NCBI GenBank assembly: GCA_964016885.1
Contig: OZ024740.1
Location: forward strand, 89,714,001-89,778,000
Reading direction: 5' to 3'
Source: Eledone cirrhosa
Taxonomy: Eukaryota
Length of the DNA stretch: 64,000 bases
This document shows, in pieces, positions 7,368 through 64,000 of this stretch. The notes beneath the pieces are model-generated. The model worked only from the letters and a program-made list of their open reading frames with translations. It did not search any database and was not told the origin of the DNA. Every line of letters starts with the position of its first letter. Within the stretch, counting starts at the first letter, position 1. A program made the translations under genes and the position numbers.

Positions 7368-7534
7368 CCGTTTCGACGGCTATTTCTGGACTAATGTTTT
7401 AGTCCAGAAATAGCCGTCGAAACGGCTTGAGCTCTGCCGTTGGGGTTAAACATTATTACCCACTCTACTACCCTAAATATTGAGTACTATGGTGCGTTAT
7501 GGTCCGTCTTGTTCCTTACTACACATCCTTCGTG

Positions 7535-17207: not shown

Positions 17208-17692
17208 AATTACCTCTGTAATTTATTTACATTATTCTTAACTCTGAAGCCGAGAATCATTCGGTTTCCTAATTAGAATTTTAGTCTACGACTTCAATTA
17301 TACCATAAACGTAGTTTTGTCTTTGCGTGTAATTGTTCTCATCGTTCCACATGATAACGTATTATCTTCGTTTTTTTCGTTCATTGCCAGAGAACGTCTC
17401 CACGAACCACCTAATAGAATATTAGTCTACGACTTCATGTATACCATAAACGTGGTTTTGTCTTTGCGTGTAATTGTTTTCACGGTTCCAAATAGGGACG
17501 TATTATCTTCGTTTTTTTTTCGTTCTTTGCCAGGGAACGTTTCCACGAACCAAAGTATCGCCTTCCTGTCTTCCTTCGGTTGCAATGTTTTTCGAAATAT
17601 TTACTTCTGCGTTCACAGATTGATCTTTTTAGTTTCAGACGATCCGGTTAAGGGTGAAAGCAGCGATTTTTTGCTTAAACATTAATCTGTTA

Positions 17693-17700
<8 letters not shown>
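17208..17700 (+). mobile_element. 3' UTR/pseudo-LTR fragment of the Naiad-type PLE, with two ~140-bp internal tandem units
   Basis: Aligns to ~21348-21845 and the reverse complement of ~59856-60352; unit begins TAGAAT.TTAGTCTACGACTTC; ends in (TA)n. Confidence 0.85.
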
Positions 17701-17781
<81 letters not shown>

Positions 17782-19199: not shown

Positions 19200-20520
19200 A
19201 GGTAATATAACGGGTATTTATGAATTGCTTGTAAGTAATAATTATAAACATAATTACACAACCAAAGGCCAAAAGCAGCACTAGGGCCACCCCCATCCAC
19301 CTCGCCACAATCAACACCAACCCTTTCGGAGGACATGCCAACACTGCAGAATGATTGTGACGTGGAGGAGTGGTGGAAAACTATGAAACACAGGTAGAAA
19401 TGTACTCTTCCTTCGACCTCAAAAAAGAATGTGAAACAAACAAACATACAAACATGTTAAAACAACAACGGCACCACCACTACCCACATCGTTATCACGT
19501 GCGCTACCACCACAAACACCAATACCATTACCATCATCAACTCTAACACGACCAACCCCAACACCACAACAAGCACCAACAGCAAGCCAAACAGGAACAA
19601 ACCTACATGCGCAACTGCAACAAAAGCAAACACAATAAAACGATAAATATGTAACGCAAATCCCGGCTCTAAACACGAACAACAATCAATTATTGCACTA
19701 TATCTAGCACAACGCAGCCATCACAGAGAAACAAAGCTATACAACACCCCAAATATCCACACCACCCACACTCATACAAATAGGACGCCTCTTCCAAAAG
19801 ACATAGCGTTTTTAAGCCCCCCCCCCCCCAAAAAAAAACATCGGAGATTTCCCTGAAACCCTCTGAGGAAGGATATACAAAAGCCTCTTTGCGGAGAGGG
19901 CCACAGCAAGCCAGGACTGGTGAAAGTGGACTCACCCACCTATTCCTACTATTTTTCAACATGACCTTACTTAGAATAGGCAGCGTAAATGCACATGTCC
20001 TGAGTGATGAGGAACAACTGCTCAAGCGTACACGATGCTTCAGGTAATCAACTAAGTCCATCATGATGATTACCGCTCCATCTTCGTTTAAACGGGTGGG
20101 TCAAGCAGTGTTATTTGCTAAGTTGCCTTGGTTAAATAGGTCATGTATTGGACATGCTTGAACGGGCTGAAGACGAACACTTACCCCTTGGGGCGAGGCC
20201 GTAATTAACTTTTTCAAATTTCATTTGAAAAGAAATATCAGTGGGGAGATGGAAGTGGTCACTTCCCACCAGTTTGTTGAAAGGAGGATGAGAGGTGAAT
20301 ATGGCCCTAGTGAATAGGCCTGCTCTGACTATGTGCTTATAGATTGGAGATGGAAAACTGTCATATGGAAATTGCCCTGGTGGATAGGGTTACCGTGGCT
20401 TCTTTGTTCACTTTCTCTACTGGTGACACTTAGAATTCTCCCTTCGCTATTGTGTAATTTTACTTTGTTTTTTAGTTTTTGTTACAGCGTGTGGTCTTGT
20501 TTTTCTTTTATACAAGCTGC
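19200..20520 (+). mobile_element. Probable L1/Tx1-type LINE remnant (internally deleted)
   Basis: P/T-rich ORF1-like stretch, then MTLLRIGSVNAHVL at ~19960 resembling an APE endonuclease start, then a C-terminal-like WTCLNGLKT..GEAVINFFKFHLKRNI..E....FVER; ends at a (CA)/(TA) microsatellite. Family assignment is by recall only. Confidence 0.45.
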
Positions 20521-20854: not shown

Positions 20855-21888
20855 ATATTTTACGTCTTGATGTGGTAGCTAAGTATATGTTATGTTTATA
20901 CCATTACTTATTTGCATAGGTAAGTATATATTATCTGTATGTTATGTGAAAGTACGTATACTTTCTCGTACGTATATTTGATTGTATATGTTATGGCGAA
21001 TATTTTATATATGCTGGTACATATGCTTTTGATTATGTGTATACGTGAGTTTTGCGTCTGTGTGAGTATGCGGGTTCGTACGTATGTTGGGTGTGTGTAT
21101 ATGTGTACTTTGTGTTTTGGTTGATGTACGTCTCCGAACATATGTGTATTTACATGTAGGTATGTGTGTGCGTTTGTTATATACGTATTTATTTATTTAT
21201 TTATATATGTTTATTTAATTATTTGTATACACGCACACACACACACACATATTTATATGTGCGTGTATTTGTATACCTATGGCGAGTGTTTTTGCGTATG
21301 CTTGTGTATGTACGTATATGGATACGTTTATGTATTTATTTAATTTCAATTACCTCTGTATTTTATTTACTTTATTCTTAACTCTGAAGCCGATAATCAT
21401 TCGGTTTCCTAGTTAGAATTTTAGCCTACGACATCAGTTATACCATTTACGTGGTTTTGTCTTTGCGTGCAATTGTTCTCTACGCTCCACATATGACGTA
21501 TTATATTCGTTTTTTCCGTTCATTGAACGTCAGAGAACGTCTCTATGAACCACCTAAGAGAATATTAGTCTACGACTTCTTTTATACCATAAACGTGGTT
21601 TTGTCTTTGCGTTTAAATGTTTTTCACTGCTCCATATAATGACGTATTATATTCGTTTTCCCAGTTCTTTGCCAGGGAACGTTTCCACGAACCAAAGTAT
21701 CTTCTTCCTGTCTTCCTCCGGTTGCAACGTTTTCTTAACTATTCACTTCTGCGTTCACATATCGACTTTGTTAGTTTCAGAAGATCCCGTTAAGGGTGAA
21801 ATCAACGATTCTTTGCTTAATCTTTAATCTGTTATTTTAATAAATATTTGCTCTACGCTTCTTGTAAATTTGATATATATTTATCCTT
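20855..21888 (+). mobile_element. Long 3' UTR/pseudo-LTR of the Naiad-type PLE (non-coding copy)
   Basis: Starts with TTTTACGTCTTGATGTG.TAGCTA, which directly follows the GIY-YIG ORF at ~63208; colinear with the reverse complement of 58974-60850 minus the Helitron. Confidence 0.88.
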
Positions 21889-24799: not shown

Positions 24800-31521
<6,722 letters not shown>

Positions 31522-31590
31522 TATGAAGAGAGAAGAAACATTTAGATATAATTAGTAATAAAATGTATCATACCTAAACTGCTCCTAAAT

Positions 31591-31678
31591 TCCTCGACTA
31601 CGTAGTTTCGTGGCATAAACAAAAACAATATATCAAAGATATAGAGTCCTTGCGAGGTCTGCCGACTTATCAAGAGGA
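31591..31678 (-). ncRNA. Type I hammerhead ribozyme candidate (inverted copy)
   Basis: Reverse complement of the 31890-31977 motif. Confidence 0.65.
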
Positions 31679-31889
31679 TACCTCATTTTACTAGTCTCAA
31701 GAACGCGTCTACACGACGTGAGAAAGAATCCCAAAAGGCGGAGGGGGAGATAGTCACGCGATATAACGGTCGAGAAACAGAGCTAAGCCTCCTATGATAC
31801 ATTTTATCGCGTGACTATCTCCCCCTCCGCCTTTTGGGATTCTTTCTCACGTCGTGTAGACGCGTTCTTGAGACTAGTAAAATGAGGTA

Positions 31890-31977
31890 TCCTCTTGATA
31901 AGTCGGCAGACCTCGCAAGGACTCTATATCTTTGATATATTGTTTTTGTTTATGCCACGAAACTACGTAGTCGAGGA
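31890..31977 (+). ncRNA. Type I hammerhead ribozyme candidate, U3-A8 variant with 44-nt loop II
   Basis: Stem I UCCUC/GAGGA; core UUGAUAA; stem II GU(C)GGCA/UGCCAC; GAAA; palindromic stem III ACUACGUAGU; triplet GUC, predicted cut after 31972. Confidence 0.7.
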
Positions 31978-32479
31978 ATTTAGGAGTAGTTTAGGTATGA
32001 TACATTTTATTACTAATTATATCTAAATGTTTCTTCTCTCTTCATAATGTATTTTTAACTCTGATACTGGTTCAGTCTAGTTCAACTGAATTGGTCTGTC
32101 CCAGTCATTCATTGAGCAACATCGGTGAAGTCGGCACCCTTAACTCACAGTTGGGTGCGGATGCATTCATGTATATATGTGTGTGTCCGCATGTATCTGT
32201 GTGTTTCTAAATATATTAATAACTCCCTCTGGTCGAGCAATCTTTGAAGTGTGGGGACAACTGGAAAGCTTCCATTACTCATACTTCTCGCCTTCTTCAC
32301 TACCTCTTCTACGGCCTCGATATGAATACCCCCTCCGCCTCCGTGGTATTTTCTTCGTGGTTATAGGAGGCTTAGCTCTGTTTCTCGACCGTTATATCGC
32401 GTGACTATCTCCCCCTCCGCCTTTTGGGATTCTTTCTCACGTCGTGTAGACGCGTTCTTGAGACTAGTAAAATGAGGTA

Positions 32480-32567
32480 TCCTCTTGATAAGTCGGCAGA
32501 CCTCGCAAGGACTCTATATCTTTGATATATTGTTTTTGTTTATGCCACGAAACTACGTAGTCGAGGA
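32480..32567 (+). ncRNA. Type I hammerhead ribozyme candidate (second tandem copy)
   Basis: Same sequence as 31890-31977, 590 bp downstream; predicted cut after 32562. Confidence 0.7.
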
Positions 32568-32799
32568 ATTTAGGAGCAGTTTAGGTATGATACATTTTAT
32601 TACTAATTATATCTAAATGTTTCTTCTCTCTTCATAATGTATTTTTAACTCTGATACTGGTTCAGTCTAGTTCAACTGAATTGGTCTGTCCCAGTCATTC
32701 ATTGAGCAACATCGGTGAAGTCGGCACCCTTAACTCACAGTTGGGTGCGGATGCATTCATGTATATATGTGTGTGTCCGCATGTATATGTGTGTTTCTA

Positions 32800-32887
<88 letters not shown>

Positions 32888-32928
32888 TATGAAATATAAG
32901 AATCAAAGAACTGTTCAAAACATTATTG

Positions 32929-32975
32929 TGCTTACAGCTGTTTCCTCCAAACCGAGGTTTGGATTCTTCGGAGCA
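32929..32975 (-). ncRNA. Minimal type I hammerhead ribozyme of the PLE pseudo-LTR (U4C variant)
   Basis: Minus strand: UGCU-CCGAAGA-A-UCCAAACC-UC-GGUUUGGA-G-GAAA-CAGCUG-UA-AGCA; stem I UGCU/AGCA, palindromic loop III AGCU, triplet GUA. Confidence 0.65.
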
Positions 32976-34417
32976 ATTTATTAATGCATGGACAGTTATA
33001 TGACCTCCTTTTCAGCCGAGAGACATACCAATACATATTCAAACATTGATACATATTCAAACATTGTGGGTCAACTTTCATTACAGAATTTAGAGTGGCA
33101 GTACACACTTCGAGATTACATTTATATTAATAGGTACAATCAAAAATCAAAGATATAGGTTAAAGTACAACATGAAGATAAGTGGTTATATAGTGCAAAT
33201 GTTATATGTGTGGCACGCATGTGCGTCTTGTTTATATAGTGTGGCAGAGAGATATGTGTGGTAGAGGCACTTAGGTAGGTAAATAAGAGTGTTAGGTTGG
33301 TAGATCTGGTGGGAAAGTCTTTATATGATTGATATAGTCTGTGTGTGGAGAAATATTATAAGCATTAAAGATAGTGCAAGCATTAAAAGTGTTATAAGTA
33401 TTGGAGATGCACAGCGCAGGGATGTCATGTAATTCATGTACTTCGGCATTTTCATGGTCAAGGGAGTGTATATTTCGATTATATGCCTTTCACATAATCC
33501 ACGACAATCCAGTTAGAGATCGTAGTCTGGTGTTCTTTAGTTCGATACAGGAGGTTGTTACGTTTCGAGAAACGCCATTGAATAAGGGAAGTGTGTGTGT
33601 GGCTAAGGGGAGTTAATGCATGCGGGGAGGTAACTCTGGGGTTTCTATATCTAGCCATTAAAATGTGTCCCAATATAGACCCTAAATTCTATGGTGAGGT
33701 GCACCTTCCAAGATAGACTTTTAAAGCATAAAGTGTACTAACTATAGAGTAGTTTAACTAAATTATGCTGAAGGTGATCATATTATTATTAAGGTGGATT
33801 AACCCCTCTTAAGGTGCTACAAATGGAAATTATAGATGATGAGCGAGGATTCTAAATTAATGATCTCTGTGGTTGTAGTCTGCTCATATGAAGAGGCGCG
33901 GTGATTGCAGGATTGCTTCAGGACCCAATGATCTCTGGTAAGGTCTGGGTCATCGCTTGCTACATTGGATGTCGAAAGATAATCGTCCCCAGGCAGGCCA
34001 AATGTCAATCCGCAGTCCTCGCGACCCCTCTCTGACCGTCAGATCATCCATATACGTACAACCCGCACGGCAGTTGCATTGGATTCACTCACTGCGCTCA
34101 CAGCCCGGTCCTACTGGTCAACAGCGCTACTCGATTAAATCATTTTACATCTGTCTAAGGAAGGTGTTTCCTCTGCCCAACACCATCCAACCGATCAATT
34201 CATGCTCAAATTACCCTTAGAGCGGTGTAGTGCCGTCCAAGTGGGTGGATGTTGTCACACCTGCCGTAGAGGTATAAATGGGTATTTTCCCTGCGAAGGG
34301 TTCCAGAGGTATGTCGTTGTTTGTGTTATAATGGATCAGCTAGTGTTGGGTATGTAGTATAGGGTGTGTCTCTGGTGTTTGATGCTAGATGTGGTGTTAG
34401 GTTCCAGTCCGACATTG

Positions 34418-35362
34418 CTATATATAGGGCTTAAAGTTTTGGAAGGAATGTCTGAGGCGGTGCTGGCAAGTTGCAAACACCTCAGATTTTTTGTTAAGTA
34501 GGTTACGGTTGGAGAAGATAATATTGTGTGTCTCTAGTATACAGAGGTTACAGAATTTATTAGGTGGTTTGTACGAGGTCGCGCTGCCTATCACTTCCCA
34601 TTTGAGTGTGTATGGTTTATTTTTAGATTTTAGATAGTGTATGTAGCTAGAAAGTGAGGTGGAGTTGGCTAGGCTGTGCTTTTTGAACGAGATATATCTG
34701 ATTTTGAAGCAGTTAGAAGTGGAACCTACATAGGTTTCTGAAGAGTTATTAGTCGTGACTGTGCATGAGTATATGACATCCTTGGTTAGGCATTTTTTAT
34801 CTAAAGGGCAGGTTCTATTAGCTCTACAGTTACAATTATTCTGTGCGTTAGTCCGCTGGTTATAATGCAATGCGGAAGTCTGTGTGGTGGATATAGGATT
34901 TTGGGTGTTCGGTTTGACAACCCTGGTGTTATTACTTATACTAGTGTTATTTCTATTGTTACTGCCGTTGCTATTGTTGCTTGCTACAGTGGTATTTAGA
35001 GGGTTTGCATCCCGTTGTGATTTTGTTTGTTGGAAGTAAGAACTAATTTTACTATTATTGCTGCTAGCTATGTGGTATGCTAAGTTAGGCGTCGTAGAGT
35101 ATGAGATTTTAATGGTGTTTTTGTTTAAGAGGTTGTGGTACTTGTGTCCTAGAGGGAAGTTTTTATCTAGTAGTGAGAAGAAAGCCCTAGGTATGTTGGT
35201 GGAGACATTTAGGTTGAAAGGAGGGTTGAAAAATGTATTATTTCTTCTTCTATTTTTGCTTTTAGTGTTTGGTGTGTTGCTTCCTCCTAAGGCCTCAGAG
35301 TAGTTTCCATGGTAATGGTTACTTCCGGTGGCACCCTCCGCTTTGGTGTACTTGTGGTTCAT
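34418..35362 (-). pseudogene. C-terminal part of PLE ORF: post-RT region, CxC zinc motif and GIY-YIG endonuclease
   Basis: FFNPPF..VSTNI..KNFP..H..NKNTIKISYS, CNCR....CPL...C, VIYSC..YVGST..FKIRY, WEVI, CNLCILE, LNKKSE..CQHR; RT core absent. Confidence 0.92.
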
Positions 35363-35598
35363 ATTCTCGGTTTGGAGGAAACAGCTGTAAGCACAATAAT
35401 GTTTTGAACAGTTCTTTGATTCTTATATTTCATATAACTGCTCTGTAAATCATCTGATGTTTTTACATTGAGCTACTTAACTTACTGGTAATAAGGTAGT
35501 AATACATTACTGCCTACCACTATTTAGGGTGTGTGTAAAATACTTACAACTGCTTTAGGTTTTGTGTTTACATAACCATAAATAATATAACTAATACT

Positions 35599-37740
<2,142 letters not shown>

Positions 37741-51535: not shown

Positions 51536-54500
51536 TTAATCGTTGTATCGCATTGGCCTCTCTACTAAGCGTCCTCGGCGTGTTCTTTGTTGTTGGGGTA
51601 TGTTATCCGAGATTAAGAATGTGTCAGAAGATTCATCGTCGTCGAATTCAGCACTCTCTGTAGGATTGTTATCGGCGGTAGATGTCATACCTTCGTGCCC
51701 AACGGCCACAGGTGTAGATATTGCTGTTGGTTGAGTTAAATTGGCGCCTTTTGTTGAATTTCCATTGTTTTGTGGTGATGCTGCTGGTGCGAGATTTGTA
51801 GTTGAGACTGTGTCTATTCTTCCACTATTAAATTGTACCTTGGCAAAGTGAGGTGAGATCGTCTCGATGAGTTGAACGTTTTCCGTAAGATCATCACCTT
51901 TATTCCTTATGTGACGTCGATATAGTACGATTGTGCCCGGTTTATTTAGAATCTCTGGTATTTCTGTGCCGTTTTTTGTCGATCTGGTGAATGAAAATAC
52001 TCTTTCATGTGGCGTGGCGTTTGTAGCAGTGCAAAGCAATCCGCGAATAGACGACAGAGCGATTGGAATCATGTTACTCCATTTTTATTGAGATGATTTG
52101 TCTTCAATGTCAGATTTATCGCTTTGCATATTGTGCCGTTAACTCTTTCGCATTGGCCGTTGGCTTGAGGTCGATATAGCCTGGTGTGGCCTTTTATAAT
52201 GTTATTACTCTATAAGAAATCATTGAGTTTTTGTGATTTAAATTGACGTCCCCTATCTGTATGAATCGAACTGAGTTTTCCAAATATAGAGAATATCTCC
52301 AATAGATGTTTAATTACTACGTCCATTGTAATCTCTTAACAAGGAATGGCGAATAGAAAACGTGAGTCCTCGTCAACTATAGTTACCATAATTCGAAAAC
52401 CGTTTGAGATAGCCATGGGACCCATAAAGTCCATTTATAGTCTTTCCCAGGTTTTTGTGGCATGTATTAATCTTCCTGTGGGTGGTTTATATAATTTTGG
52501 TTTACATTCACGGCATATTTTGCAATTGGCGATAACTTCCCTTATTTCATTATTAGGATATGCCAAGTTCATTGATTTACAATAATGTAGAAGTCTGATG
52601 ATTCCGGATGACATAGACGTGAGTGAATATTGTATAATTTGTGTTCCGTCTTAGTAGAGTAGCAGCTCGATAGGGCACCTGTGGCTTGGTTTAATGAACC
52701 AGGTCTATATGAGAATTTAAGGTTAAGATCGCTTAGCTCCAGTCGCCAGTGGGCTACCTTCTCGTTTTTAATCTTGGAAGTGTGTTTTTAGTTGAACGCA
52801 AATGCAACCGATCGTTGGTCTGTTATGATATTACGATGTGGAACAGCGCTAATCTTATGCCTCCATTTTCTACATCATTCTATAATTACGCAACCTTCCT
52901 TTTCGATGATGGAATGTCCTCTTTCTGACTTATTTATGCTTCTACTAAGAAAAGCAATTGGACGACCATTTTCTAATAGAGTTCCGCAAATGGCAATATC
53001 TGCGTCGGTTTCGAATATAAATGGTGCAGTGAAATCGGGTGAACACAGTGATGCCTTTATGAGTTCTTCCTTCATCTTATTAATAGTAGATTTTTCTTCG
53101 TTTGATAGATATTGTTTACCAATGGTGTTTCTTGCTTTTGTAAGAACGACAGAGAGGTTAGAAGAGCCCTTAATCCATTTAGCATAGTATGCAAACAGAC
53201 CGATTACCCAGTTTAACTCTTTTAACGTCTTTGGGAACGGCGTGTAACAAGGGCTGTATAACTTTCAGGGTCCGGTCTTAATTGACCTTTTTCTATGACA
53301 TGTCCAAGGAAATGTATTCTATTTTGATTAAAGCTGCATTTGTCTCGATTCAATTGCATACCTGCATTGTAGCTGCATTCAAGATTGCTTTAGGTTTGGG
53401 TTATGTTCTTCGACTGTGTCTCCTCGTTTAATATTGTCGTCAAGGTATGAGTAGCTATTTTATAAGTTATAATTGTCTATGCAAGTGTCCAATATTTGTT
53501 GGAAAATTTGAACGGCATTTGTGCATCCAAACGGAAGACGGGTAAATTCGTATAGTCCGCTACAGGCTAGGAATGCAGTAAACTTAAAGTCGGAAGATTT
53601 GATGGGTATTTGGTGATAAGCGGCCTTTAGATCTATTTTCGAGAAATACGTGTTTTGAAATTTTGTTGAGTAGGTCTTCGATTATAGCATTTGGGTATGA
53701 ATCCAATGGTGTGTAACGATTTATAGTGCCTAAGTAGTCTATGACAATACGTTTTTTTTTGTTTTCTTGATCTATTACGAAGCACTGCGCTCTCTATGGG
53801 CTTCTGCTATGTTGAATTATTCCAGCTTTAAGCATTCTGTCGATTTCCCTTTTAATGAATTGCTGATCTTTATTGTATTTTGAGGAGATATAGATAATGG
53901 TTTTAATTTTGTCGTATCGATATCAGGCATTAAATCATATTCTTCACAATTCAGAGTTTGCATTGACATACATATCGTGACTGCTCTCATGTCCCCCGCA
54001 TATTTTATTGTTAAAGACTTCTACCTGTTAAGTATATCAATACCCATAACTACTGGAGCAAATGAGTTTGTCAACCACCATTAGATCGATGTGGTATTCT
54101 CGGCCCTCCCATTCTAATGTTGTTTCAAACGTACCTCGTATTATGAGTTTACTGTTGTTGGCTAAAATTACACTCCTATTCTTAGTTTTCTTGAATTTGC
54201 TTGAATTTGTTTGGAATATTTTATCTAGATTTTCGTCAGGTGATTCCAGAAGTCGTTGTTTTATGGAGGCGGATTGAATACCCGACACGAACGCATCACA
54301 AATCAACAATTGTCTATGTTGTTCCCCTGTTAGGGGTTTAGTGGGGCATTTATTTGCGAGGACTTTTAAATCAAAGATTGCCCTTCTTGTTGACAATGGT
54401 TGCATAGTTTATGTCGGGTCATTATTGCTGAGCCTTTCTTTTGAAATGTATTATCAAGAATAGATAATGCCTCATCGAATGATGTTGCTTCTTCAATGAG

Positions 54501-58973: not shown

Positions 58974-61276
58974 AAGGATAAATATATATCAAATATATAA
59001 CAACCGTAGAGCAAATCTATATATATAAAACTGTGGTTGTCTGTCTGTCTATCGATTTTTGGCACACATCTCCTCTTAGAATCTCTCACGGAATTGCACC
59101 GAAATTGCTAGACTTGTACATTGAGCCCTAGCGAAAACATCGGAAAAAATAAATTTCAAATTGACCCACCCTATGTGACGAAATCGAATATAATGTATCG
59201 ATTTTTGAGCGTAAGTTATCAGTTATTTCCCTTTGTTCTGTTTACATTGTGCGTCTTACGTAAAAAATTACGCTGGCTTTAACAGTTGTCGAGCCAGCAA
59301 AATATTGACCTGCAAAATTCATCAGTTCGAACACTAAGCTTCCGTTTTGCTTCATTTCCATTTAAAAGCATTTTAAAACAATATTTTTACTTGAAAACAA
59401 GTCTATTTAAAGACTACGTAAAACAAGCAAATATTTCGTCGTTAGGCGTGCAGACAGACAGTCGTGCAGACAGACAGTCGTGCAGAGAGGTGATATAGGC
59501 GTGCAGACAGACAGTCGTGCAGAGAGGTGATATAGGCGTGCAGACAGACATAACTGATAATTTGGTTACGCTAATGTTTTTCTCTGCGTTGCAGTGTTTA
59601 CATTTTCGATCTTTGTTAATAAATAACCAGTGCAGTTTCTATCCCCAGCATCCTCTTTTGTTATAACATTCGGGTTATCGTTATGTTTTCTTAACTTCAT
59701 AAGGCATATTGTTGGTTGAGGGAATATTAATCAAAAACACCACATGCAAGTCTGCACAGTAAACACTACAGTTTTTAAGCCAAGAAAGAAACTTAACATT
59801 GTAACTTTAACACAGCTACTGAGCGACCCCGAGCAACGCCGGGCTTTACTGCTAGTATTTATTAAAATAACAGATTAAAGTTTAAGCAAAGAGTCGCTGC
59901 TTTCACCCTTAACGGGATCTTCTGAAACTAACAAAGTCAATCTGTAAACGCAGAAGTGGATATTTCAAAAAACGTTGCAACCGGAGGAAGACAGGAAGAC
60001 GATACTTTGGTTCGTGGAAACGTTCCCTGGCAAAGAACGGGAAAAACCGAATACAATACGTCATTAATAGGAGCGGTGAAAGACAATTACGCGCAAAGAC
60101 AGAACCACGTTTAAGGTATAAAAGAAGTCGTAGACTAATGTTCTCTTAGGTGGTTCGTGGAGACGTTCTCTGGCAATGAACGAAAAAAACGAAGATAATA
60201 CGTCATATGTGGAGCGTGGAGAACAATTGCACGCAAAGACAAAACCACGTAAATGGTATAGCAGAAGTCGTAGACTAAAATTCTAACTAGGAGACCGAAT
60301 GAAACTCTTCTTCAGAGTTAAGAATAAAGTAAATAAATACAATACAGAGGTAATAGAAATAAATAAATACATACACGCATACAGATATTTACATACACAA
60401 GCATACGCGAAAACACTTACCATAGGTATACAAAACCACGCACATATAAATATGTGTGTGTGTGTGTGTGCGCGTGTATACAAATAAAAAAAATAATTAA
60501 ATAAACGTATATAAATAAATAAATACGTATATAACAAACGCACACACATACCTACATGTGAATACACAAATGTTTGGAGACGTAAATCAAGCAAAACATG
60601 AAGTACACATATACACACACCCTACATACGCACGAACCTGCATACTCACACAGACGCAAAAAACCCGTATACACATAACCAAACCATATGTACCAGAATA
60701 TATTAAATTATACGCCATAACATATACAATCAAATATACGTACGAGAAAGTATATGTACCTTCACAAAACATACAGGTAATATATACTTACCTAAGCAAA
60801 TAAGTAATGGTATAAAGAAAACATATACTTAGCTACCAAATCAAGACGTAATATATCCACGTATAGATCGTACTATCCGTTAGGGTATAACGTGGGGCTG
60901 TAATACAGGAAAGTGTTGTGCAATTTATGTTTACAAGCCGAAATTGCTTCAGATTTTTTGTTTAAGATGTGGTCTGTGGCGTAGAGTATTTCCAGGGCTT
61001 CAGCGGCGTAGAGGTCACATGGTCTTTTATTTCAGTTATACGATCTAGCCCTAGCTAGGATCTCCCAGTGTAACTTATATTGGGTGTGGTTGTCTTTTAG
61101 ACTCCAGATATAAGCTGAAAGTGACGTCATATTCCTTCTTAGAGGGTAACGAAAAGAATGGCTATGCATGTACAGACGCTGCTTGAATCTATTGGCGGTT
61201 AACCCTATGTACGTGGGTGTTTCAACCTTACATTTGTAGACAATGTTACTTAAGAGGCATTTCCCGGATAGGGGGC
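58974..61276 (-). mobile_element. Inverted 3' copy of the Naiad-type PLE (GIY-YIG end + long 3' UTR), interrupted by a Helitron
   Basis: ~60830-61276 is the reverse complement of ~62776-63232 (IVYKC..YIGLT..FKQR..WEIL); continues into the sequence shared with 20855-21888. Confidence 0.9.
59016..59855 (+). mobile_element. Complete non-autonomous Helitron (840 bp)
   Basis: 5' TCTATATATATAAA, (GTCT)n near the 5' end, internal 37-bp tandem units at ~59445-59550, 3' hairpin CCCG..CGGG then CTAG; inserted between A and T with no TSD. Confidence 0.93.
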
Positions 61277-63232
61277 TACCCTTCGAAAATGATGTCTCGG
61301 AACTCATACGGAGTATCAAATATCGGAATAGGAGCAATTCCTTCCAGCAGGACCTGAAGAATAGAATTCGTTCTTTTAAGGATTCTAATGCCGTGCACGC
61401 CCATTCCGACAAAACTGGCAACCTATATCAAGTAGAGCGCAGTACTTACCATCAACTAATACATAATGCTTTAACTAAGGATTACCGTAAAACTAATCGG
61501 TGTGTCGTCAATGAAATCAACGATGCTGGGTTTAAAATCACATCTGATCTCAACATCCTGAATCGGACCGAACCTCTGGACCCTATTACTCCCCACTTTA
61601 CCTGAAGGATCATCAATCCAATTTTCCGAACAACCCCTCTATTCGGCTTATTAACCCAAATAATCCGATTCAGGTAGACTTAGTAAAACGATTCTTGATA
61701 GAATTATACCTGAAATTAGAAGTTTGGCACCGCTTGCACCGTGGAACAATTCTTTCGCGGTGATTGATTGGTTCAACGGCATATGTAACAAGGAACATTG
61801 CCGTTTTATCCACTTCGTCATCACAACTACTACACCCCAATCACTTTACCACTTCTCCTTAGAGCTATCAATTTTGCTAAAACACTCACAGTGGTTAAGG
61901 ATTACGAAGTTGATGTCATCCTCAATGCACGTAAGTCGGTGATTAATTTCGACGACTCTATTTGGATTAAACAATCCAATAGTACCACATTCGACGTGAG
62001 TATTGGTGACAGCGATTCTGCGGAGGTTACATATCTCATCGGCCTTTTCCTTCTTTTCTCTATCAAGGACGAATTCCCCAAAGCGGACGGTGGTTTGTAC
62101 CGTGATGATGGTCTTTGACCATGACTAAGTGCGGACCTGGTGCTTGCGACAAGTTCAGAAAAGAACTCACAGCCTTCTTTAAAGGCTTCAACCACTCTAT
62201 ACGGGTTGAGGCCAATCTCTCGGTCGTTAATTACCTCGACGCTACCCTCAATTTATCGAATGGGTTGTATTACCCGCATAGAAAGCCGAATGATACGCTT
62301 AATTACATAAGTAAGCATTCCAACCATCCTGCCAGCATAACCAAGAACCTGGTAAGAAACGTTTCGTTGAGGCTTTCCCGTCTATCTTCTAACGAGCATA
62401 TTTTCAACGACCATTCCACATATTACAATGAAGCTCTTACTCGGAGTGGATTTGTCGATAAGGTAGCATATACAGAGTACGAAAATAGACCTAGTTGAAA
62501 TAGATCCCGTCGCATTTGTTGGTATAACCCACCTTATAATATGGAGGTGGCCACACCATTAGCTAAGATCTTTCTTTCTCTTTTTACGAAGCATTTCACC
62601 CTACACATAAATATAGTAACATTTTCAATAGAAATACTATTAAAATTTCTTACTCTACGACTCCTAACCTTGCATATAACATCACAGCTTCAGATTTAGC
62701 TAAACTACGTAGCCGTAGGAACACGTGCAACCCTGTAGTTAGTACTAACTGTAATTGTAGGAATCGGGTCGATTGCTCCCTATCCTGGAAATGCCTCTCT
62801 AGTAACATTGTCTACAAATGTAAGGTTGAAACACCCACGACCCGTAGTGCCTACATAGGGTTAACCGCCAATAGATTCAAGCAGCATCTTTACATGCATA
62901 CCCATTCTTTTCGTTACCCTCTAAGAAGGAATATGACGTCACTTTCAGCTTATATCTGGAGTATAAAGACAACCACACCCAATATAAGTTACACTGGGAG
63001 ATCCTAGCTAGGGCTAGATCGTATAACGGAAATTTAAGATCATGTGACCTCTGCACCGCTGAGTCCCTGGAAATACTCTACGCCACAGACCACATCTTAA
63101 ACAAAAAATCTAAGGCAATTTCGGCTTGAAAACATAAATTGCACAACACTTTCCTGTATTACAGCCCCACGTTATAACCTAACGGATAGTACGATCAATA
63201 CGTGTATATTTTACGTCTTGATGTGTTAGCTA
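61277..63232 (+). mobile_element. Penelope-like retroelement (Naiad type): RT + GIY-YIG, frameshifted
   Basis: SDKTGNLY, LKDH..NF.NNP..RLINP, VIDWF, FDVSIG..DSAEV, GLYRDDGL, VNYLDATLNL, SNHP, WYNPPY, CNCR, IVYKC..YIG; ORF ends ~63177, then short UTR and (TA)n. Confidence 0.93.
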
Positions 63233-63252
63233 TGTGTGTATATATATATATA

Positions 63253-63320
63253 TAGGAACAAGTTTAACCCCGACGGCAGGGGCTCAAGCCGTTTCGACGG
63301 CTATTTCTGGACTAAACTAT
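63253..63320 (-). repeat. Third copy of the 7399/36259 repeat terminus; element probably continues rightwards
   Basis: Reverse complement reads TTAGTCCAGAAATAGCCGTCGAAACGGCTTGAGC..TGCCGTCGGGGTTAAAC, abutting (TA)n. Confidence 0.75.
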
Positions 63321-64000
63321 AATTTTTACCGTGGTAATATATAGCCGAACATTTCAAGGTGTAATTCCTTATATGGGAAGATTGTAGTTGTCAAAAGGAT
63401 TTGTCAAAATGTCTGTTAAACACAATTAAGTCTTTCTCGGTGGTAGGTGGGAGGTGGGGGTGGTTGAACTTGCCCGTATAACAATGAGGGAGTGGGTGCA
63501 GCCGGTCAGCGTTGAAAGTGAATTCAATACAGGAAATTCTACGGAGTGTGTATGAAATTAGGCTAGGTAGAAAGCAGGCGAAAATGAATTCTGGGGGAAT
63601 TTCAGAGGGGGACGTTATATATTTAAAAGATTAATAAACTGAGATTAAAAGATAATACATAAAAAAATAATTATAAAAAATTAAATAGTAACAAATAATA
63701 AAAAATGTTCCGGAGTATAAAGCAGCTGCTATATTTTTAGCGGGTATCGCCTTTTCCGCCAATGCTATATAGCATTTACTGGGGTGGGGGCACTGATACT
63801 ACAGAGGAAAAAGGAAAAGAAATGGGAGAGGGATTGGAAGGAAGTGAAAACAAGAGATAAAAGGAAACAGAAAAGAAGTATATCTACCTATGTATGCTGG
63901 GGTTTCTCCTATCCTGTTTGGCAAGTGGAGCACAGAAGGATGTGCAGCCATTTTCTACCCACCCGGATCATGAGGGGCTTTGAGGGCGAGGTAAGTCCTA

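Follow-up and report, generated by a model that had tools for sequence, protein, structure and literature searches.

Positions 31517-32801 of the window, the 64-kb stretch of DNA analysed here, hold a module that we read, with a probability of roughly two in three, as a non-autonomous Penelope-like element (PLE), or non-LTR retrozyme: a tandem unit of 590 nt, non-coding and with a predicted hammerhead of the U3-A8 type, that was probably copied in trans by PLE machinery into a (TA)n tract. The module is real and young and probably PLE-mobilised, and the general concept is already published, as retrozymes were argued to be non-autonomous PLE derivatives in bioRxiv 10.64898/2026.07.22.740005. 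In that preprint and in PMC7229834, the movement of animal retrozymes by PLEs was proposed from common hammerheads, co-occurrence and pLTR kinship, and the mechanism was left open. A young copy that bears a full PLE insertion print, with defined cDNA starts, offers a concrete substrate for studying this mechanism, including the choice between multimer and circle.

The window is AT-rich and contains long (TA/TG)n arrays and retrotransposon fragments. The module is made up of an inverted arm, a partial copy and a whole copy of the 590-nt unit, and the TA tracts that the initial annotation had described on either side of it were seen at both flanks. The features of the module and its surroundings are as follows.

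24927-31516, unstranded: left (TA/TG)n microsatellite array, the target, including a 200-N assembly gap at 29819-30018
31517-31795, minus strand: inverted 5'-truncated arm of 279 nt, the exact reverse complement of 32363-32641, with its 3' end toward the left TA tract
31591-31678, minus strand: hammerhead copy of the inverted arm, predicted cut after 31596
31793-31807, plus strand: head-to-head junction of 15 nt, equal to unit positions 32586-32600, with a 3-nt overlap with each arm that suggests template switches
31805-32211, plus strand: partial first unit copy of 407 nt, with 2 private substitutions
31890-31977, plus strand: hammerhead 1, with 5-bp stem I, UUGAUAA core, 57-nt helix II domain, GAAA and palindromic helix III, predicted cut after 31972
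32212-32801, plus strand: whole 590-nt unit, without ORF, GC 0.42
32480-32567, plus strand: hammerhead 2, with the sequence of hammerhead 1 and a predicted cut after 32562, also seen without any change in sequencing run X1
32563-32633, plus strand: predicted hairpin (z -4.1) that would take up the 3' side of stem I, with the inverted arm stopping 8 nt beyond
32642-32801, plus strand: 160-nt 'tail' present in the right arm only, with a strong predicted fold (z -4.4 for 32660-32805), abutting the right TA tract
32802-32885, unstranded: (TA)n spacer of 84 nt
32886-35590, minus strand: 5'-truncated Hydra-clade PLE by its motifs, a separate insertion, with an ORF at 34418-35365, a 1.46-kb 3' region, an inverted arm at 35366-35590 and a 154-nt tail
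32929-32975, minus strand: hammerhead-like motif of this neighbour PLE, with core CCGAAGA and palindromic helix III, predicted cut after 32933, without sequence relationship to the hammerhead of the unit

Alignment of the direct repeat with a period of 590 (31805-32211 against 32395-32801) showed 2 substitutions in 407 nt (31987/32577 and 32197/32787), which bears out the two near-identical direct copies reported initially, with the first copy now seen to be partial and the second whole. The head-to-tail content of the right arm is 1.69 units, namely the 407-nt partial first copy plus the whole second copy. The inverted partial copy was also recovered, as the exact reverse complement listed above, and the identity among the module copies was 99.5-100%. 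The right arm extends 160 nt past the point where the left arm ends, and a target duplication is unreadable within (TA)n. We considered whether the arrangement is an assembly artefact beside a gap in a long microsatellite, a reading to which the 200-N gap 1.5 kb leftward, the 100% identity of the inverted arm to copy 2 and the lack of confirmation of the inverted junction by any of the four sequencing runs compared would lend themselves. However, the direct copies differ at two sites, the insert at the junction is templated and the tandem joint is present in two other runs, and we regard an artefact as highly improbable.

The (TA/TG)n array around the module spans ~13 kb (24927-37740), shows a strong G-over-C skew and has taken up three separate insertions in addition to the 200-N gap, which marks it as an insertion hot spot.

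Both strands of the 64-kb window were searched with a type I hammerhead descriptor in which any Watson-Crick pair was permitted at positions 3 and 8. Three of the four matches were the three copies of the module, in agreement with the complete hammerhead fold per copy that had been proposed, and the descriptor reproduced the predicted cut sites after 31972 and 32562 on the plus strand, together with a third predicted after 31596 on the minus strand. The hammerhead of the unit combines a GUC site, a 5-bp stem I, a 10-nt palindrome as helix III and GAAA. Two of its features were absent from the initial annotation, namely a helix II that forms a 57-nt domain, closed by a G-C pair and bearing an extended hairpin, and a core that reads UUGAUAA (U3-A8) instead of CUGANGA. 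In dinucleotide shuffles of the unit, a loose match arose in 11 of 20,000, while the strict descriptor (palindromic helix III and a Watson-Crick stem I of at least 5 bp) matched 0 of 20,000; these rates are optimistic because the descriptor was composed after the motif had been seen. An Rfam search over the window gave no match at the gathering threshold and no hammerhead row among the 24 matches at E up to 10, the sub-threshold matches being hairpin-driven miRNA only. The hammerhead sequence was identical in the three window copies and X1, leaving no variation from which to measure covariation.

The replacement of C3-G8 by U3-A8 has been described as a natural covariation that is active in vitro (PMC3088659), and U3-A8 is reported for ~1,300 mostly single hammerhead motifs of Schistosoma PLEs (PMC4209133). 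In File S2 of PMC8557442, the Hydra clade has 26 hammerhead rows, and C3-G8 occupies every one of them, which counts against a Hydra-type origin of the core. The U3-A8 core and the long helix II suggest that such elements are undercounted when hammerheads are tallied by CUGANGA or by Rfam. In a search of mostly open-access literature, which took in the main texts of the preprint and of PMC7229834, we found neither a tandem retrozyme with this combination nor one with a described inverted arm, tail and TA target; the family could be among those listed in the supplements of the preprint.

The fourth descriptor match in the window (20220-20314) was loose, with a long non-palindromic loop III, and is probably due to chance. 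A short repeat family with TA-tract ends was noticed at 7368-7520, 36262-36395 and 63252-63400, once in a fold-back form (7368-7451); without matching the descriptor, the copy at 63252-63400 has, by eye, the look of a hammerhead in decay, its helix II long and its core similar to U3-A8.

The folding energies given here are predictions in which the tertiary energy of the core is not included. The monomer hammerhead fold lay above the minimum-energy fold, by 5-8 kcal/mol with the upstream flank and by 1-6 kcal/mol when the sequence was cut close (with 1.1 as one such value), and a plain fold of the hammerhead region was without signal (the three copies ranged from z -0.4 to 0.2, and z was -1.5 when cut close). 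A double hammerhead formed through the palindrome was predicted at -58.9 kcal/mol, compared to -43.0 kcal/mol for two monomers. When the unit was folded as a circle, the plus strand reached z -4.1 against 40 shuffles and the minus strand z -1.6, a predicted asymmetry that fits the strand of the hammerhead; the predicted fold of the circle differs from the hammerhead fold. Predicted hairpins end 5-8 nt before 32641 and 32801, which is a weak pointer in a unit that is 62% paired.

With regard to coding content, the absence of an ORF from the module held up, with the longest ATG ORF of the circularised unit measuring 75 aa on the plus strand and 45 aa on the minus strand. None of the four module ORFs matched Pfam below E 0.06, and a profile of 31 Hydra-type PLE proteins had no match in the six frames of the module (best E 2.7), compared to 2e-65 for the neighbour. 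The best tblastn result for an ORF remnant in the unit was E 0.013 across 13 residues, which was regarded as chance. The module was also considered as an autonomous Hydra-clade PLE, and this was rejected, as an ORF with RT as well as GIY-YIG at its C terminus was not found by the profile search.

The PLE that had been placed ~85 bp away does start at 32886, beyond the 84-nt (TA)n spacer, but it gives no evidence of being a partner of the unit, and we did not accept it as the mobilising element: its RT is absent, its hammerhead is different, and alignment with the unit yielded short chance words only, with no alignable sequence. The neighbour ORF covers the end of the thumb, a CxCX5C linker and the endonuclease (profile positions 463-702 of 704), without RT, has CxxC and CxH in the endonuclease, and is associated with a (TA)n target. 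Full-length relatives are expected to have RWK-like, DKT and YRDD motifs; there are 31 longer homologues, and among 8 of these, YRDD and CxCX5C were present in 8/8 and DKT and RWR in 4/8. By motifs as defined in PMC8557442, the element at 32886-35590 fits the Hydra clade; Pfam gave no name to the neighbour ORF or to three full-length homologues. No terminal sequence common to the unit and the two PLEs of the window was found, and look-ups of two motifs of the unit in the supplements of PMC8557442 returned no matches.

The neighbour PLE is peculiar in its open 315-aa endonuclease-side ORF, its unusually long 3' region and the C at hammerhead position 4, and its 154-nt tail lies on the same side as the 160-nt tail of the unit and has a similar length. 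The second Hydra-type PLE of the window (60827-63235) is frameshifted, retains RT and lacks a tail; at its 5' side it has an inverted arm that matches its 3' end at 92% identity. Inverted arms are thus present in both Hydra-type PLEs, and the two elements show that TA-targeting PLEs with such an insertion pattern were active in this genome.

Possible mobilisation by a PLE, which the initial annotation had raised, is supported by the insertion layout of the module, with its inverted arm, partial tandem, tail and TA target. The layout expected of a non-autonomous PLE was found here as a partial tandem, a truncated copy inverted at the 5' end and a tail at one end, and the PLE pattern described in PMC8557442 likewise comprises a partial tandem, a 5' copy that is truncated and inverted, a tail on one side and a microsatellite target. 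According to the in vitro results reported in PMC11167929, a PLE protein makes nicks in both strands of AT-rich DNA, cDNA starts at two internal sites downstream of the hammerhead, and the stretch between these sites becomes the tail. The same report describes unprocessed RNA as the main substrate of the PLE RT, with hammerhead cleavage unneeded, and a hammerhead of the tested PLE that cut only when protein was present (PMC11167929). Counting against this reading, the 160-nt tail far exceeds the published 30-40 bp (PMC8557442).

We propose that tandem copies would have been transcribed from the plus strand, and that a TA-targeting PLE protein (the Hydra type is present in the window, and Naiad is also conceivable) would have nicked (TA)n. 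cDNA would have started internally at 79 and 239 nt beyond the cut site (32641 and 32801), giving outward arms and the 160-nt tail; the right arm would have been copied for 997 nt across two predicted cut sites, and the arms would have been joined head to head via two 3-nt template switches. The hammerhead would most likely cut as a double hammerhead through the 10-nt palindrome, or with the assistance of protein, releasing the 590-nt unit; in bioRxiv 10.64898/2026.07.22.740005, one of nine predicted retrozyme dimers was cleaved in vitro. Because the right arm passes both predicted cut sites, the template was presumably intact at these positions, and cleaved unit-length linear RNA was rejected as the template, since copying across both sites would need jumps. 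The template would have been an uncleaved multimer, for which we have some preference, or quite plausibly a re-ligated circle that was read round; the circle is favoured by the retrozyme model (PMC7229834), and unprocessed RNA by PLE biochemistry (PMC11167929).

A search of public sequencing runs by sampled words of the stretch returned 20 matching runs from 16 studies and 17 organism codes, with no RNA runs among the 20 listed. Four of the 24 listed runs (X1, X14, X16 and the added X22) were compared with a single unit (32212-32800). In X1, one 620-nt contig (590 plus an overlap of 30) contained the whole unit, with 32800 joined to 32212 via a single A, just as the window has it, and with neither a loose end on the unit nor a branch to other sequence, subject to possible record filtering; a single entry branch at 32392 would give an equal record. 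The contig differs from the window unit only at 32366 and 32722, neither of which lies in the hammerhead, and at both positions the window copies are alike, as a single template for the insertion would predict. By these differences, the contig represents another lineage with the unchanged U3-A8 hammerhead, and the species of X1 could be the same as that of the window. The closed loop of X1 is either a circle or a tandem array with its exits pruned, which contigs cannot separate, and the run may be of DNA or of RNA.

In X16, three 151-nt records were found at a depth of 2-2.6, one of which crosses the unit joint with 3 extra bases, while two break at one GACTC site, where their partners end in GATC or begin with TAA. 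We take these breaks to be Hi-C ligation junctions, which would mean trace-level DNA. X14 (share 0.49) and X22 gave microsatellite-like matches only, below 90% identity. Not one of the 12.8 million reads of X22 fell on the unit proper, a weak result given that ~8 are expected per copy per Gb and that filters drop reads; another run under the organism label of X22 contains the unit. Weak as they are, the blanks of X14 and X22 do not speak for a spread between species. The variants in X1 and X16 indicate further copies, and read depth gives no copy number.

Because X1 forms a closed loop and a record of X16 spans the identical joint, the unit is a recurring ORF-less repeat rather than a one-off truncation. 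The earlier characterisation as a non-autonomous, ORF-less 590-nt hammerhead unit is borne out by the recurrence of its head-to-tail joint outside the locus (X1 and X16). That note had also reasoned that copies always tied to an RT ORF would point to a pseudo-LTR, and the unit-to-unit joints of X1 and X16 show that the tie does not always hold. The module could otherwise be pseudo-LTR debris of an autonomous PLE outside the window, left by a 5'-truncated or internally deleted insertion in which the terminal repeat was duplicated by chance. There is precedent for such remains, as truncated PLEs are reported often to carry a pair of hammerheads, one on each strand and separated by 100-700 bp (PMC4209133), and in Penelope-13_HM a second hammerhead lies in a truncated copy that is inverted (PMC8557442). 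We nevertheless judged this origin unlikely, given that the hammerheads stand 590 nt apart without an ORF remnant and that X1 and X16, whose variants differ, both contain the joint between units, the loop of X1 being unbranched (a filter may drop records).

The recurrence of the joint also bears on a satellite that spreads at the DNA level, through extrachromosomal circles or by unequal exchange; its hammerhead would be a relic that has stopped cutting, and its inversion a product of fold-back repair in a fragile TA tract. The closed loop of X1 is compatible with long tandem arrays, the joint of X16 was seen as DNA, the core is off consensus at two positions, and in context the monomer is not the favoured fold, all of which such a satellite would accommodate. 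It would leave aside that the two core changes are mutually compensating and common to all copies seen, that both arms end in TA with a tail, as in the independent PLE next door, and that the junction 15-mer is templated from elsewhere in the unit; we consider a satellite quite unlikely.

Sampled words in 20 runs with 17 organism codes, and the assembly of X1 as a closed circle, could also reflect a circular RNA of viroid-like type, passing from one host species to another and occasionally integrated by PLE RT. We hold this to be very improbable, as X16 would represent trace DNA by its Hi-C pattern, X22 yielded no unit reads (weakly informative, as noted), and exact-motif scans, two of metagenome contigs and one of viral contigs, found 0 loci. 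The many organism labels would be accounted for more simply if a high-copy repeat had been carried over. Horizontal transfer was dropped, with only X1 and X16 among the four compared runs confirming the unit. A bolder version of the retrozyme reading would take the locus as the print of rolling-circle RT, in which a 590-nt RNA circle, made by the ribozyme, was read round 1.7 times by a PLE protein of the Hydra type, the circle coming from a class of U3-A8, long-helix-II retrozymes missed by consensus searches and the many organism labels reflecting real spread of a viroid-like PLE parasite between hosts; taken as a whole, this appears quite unlikely to us.

Returning to a non-autonomous unit copied in trans, the module has, at the sequence level, the apparent hallmarks of a retrozyme, namely a hammerhead in each tandem unit, a period of 590 and no coding capacity. 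It resembles the metazoan non-LTR retrozymes described in PMC7229834 and bioRxiv 10.64898/2026.07.22.740005 in its non-coding tandem unit with one type I hammerhead per unit, GC below 50%, absence of LTR features and proposed dependence on PLEs. Its 590 nt fall in the 51-972 bp range of bioRxiv 10.64898/2026.07.22.740005 and exceed the 170-400 nt RNAs tested in PMC7229834. Unlike these retrozymes, it has a U3-A8 core, a 57-nt helix II domain and only 1.69 units at this locus; the inverted arm, tail and (TA)n target were not found in the main texts of the two sources. A plant LTR retrozyme, with type III hammerheads in LTRs and a short target duplication, was excluded by the type I fold and the tandem plus inverted layout.

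With the Hydra-clade PLEs described in PMC8557442, the module shares the (TA)n target, a hammerhead that has a palindromic helix III and lies close to the 3' end, an inverted 5'-truncated copy, a partial tandem and a tail, whereas its unit lacks an ORF, its core is non-canonical and its tail is 160 nt long. The hammerheads of Schistosoma Cercyon PLEs (PMC4209133) are alike in the U3-A8 covariation, the short helix I and the PLE context; they are minimal and mostly single motifs, in contrast to the 3-bp palindromic helix III, long helix II and tandem ORF-less arrangement of the unit. Non-autonomous Chlamys PLEs such as MRC1 (PMC8557442) are likewise ORF-less, head-to-tail, PLE-moved and provided with pseudo-LTRs, but are algal, mostly without hammerheads, and have 3' ends in common with known autonomous partners.

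Elsewhere in the window, a dispersed repeat with internal 143-nt tandem subunits occurs at 59856-60856, 20855-21846 and 17209-17704, with 88-89% identity between copies, and abuts the PLE at 60.8 kb. The ORF fragments at 203-980 and 51536-54408 resemble the helicase region of a Helitron and the RNase H/integrase region of an LTR retrotransposon, respectively.
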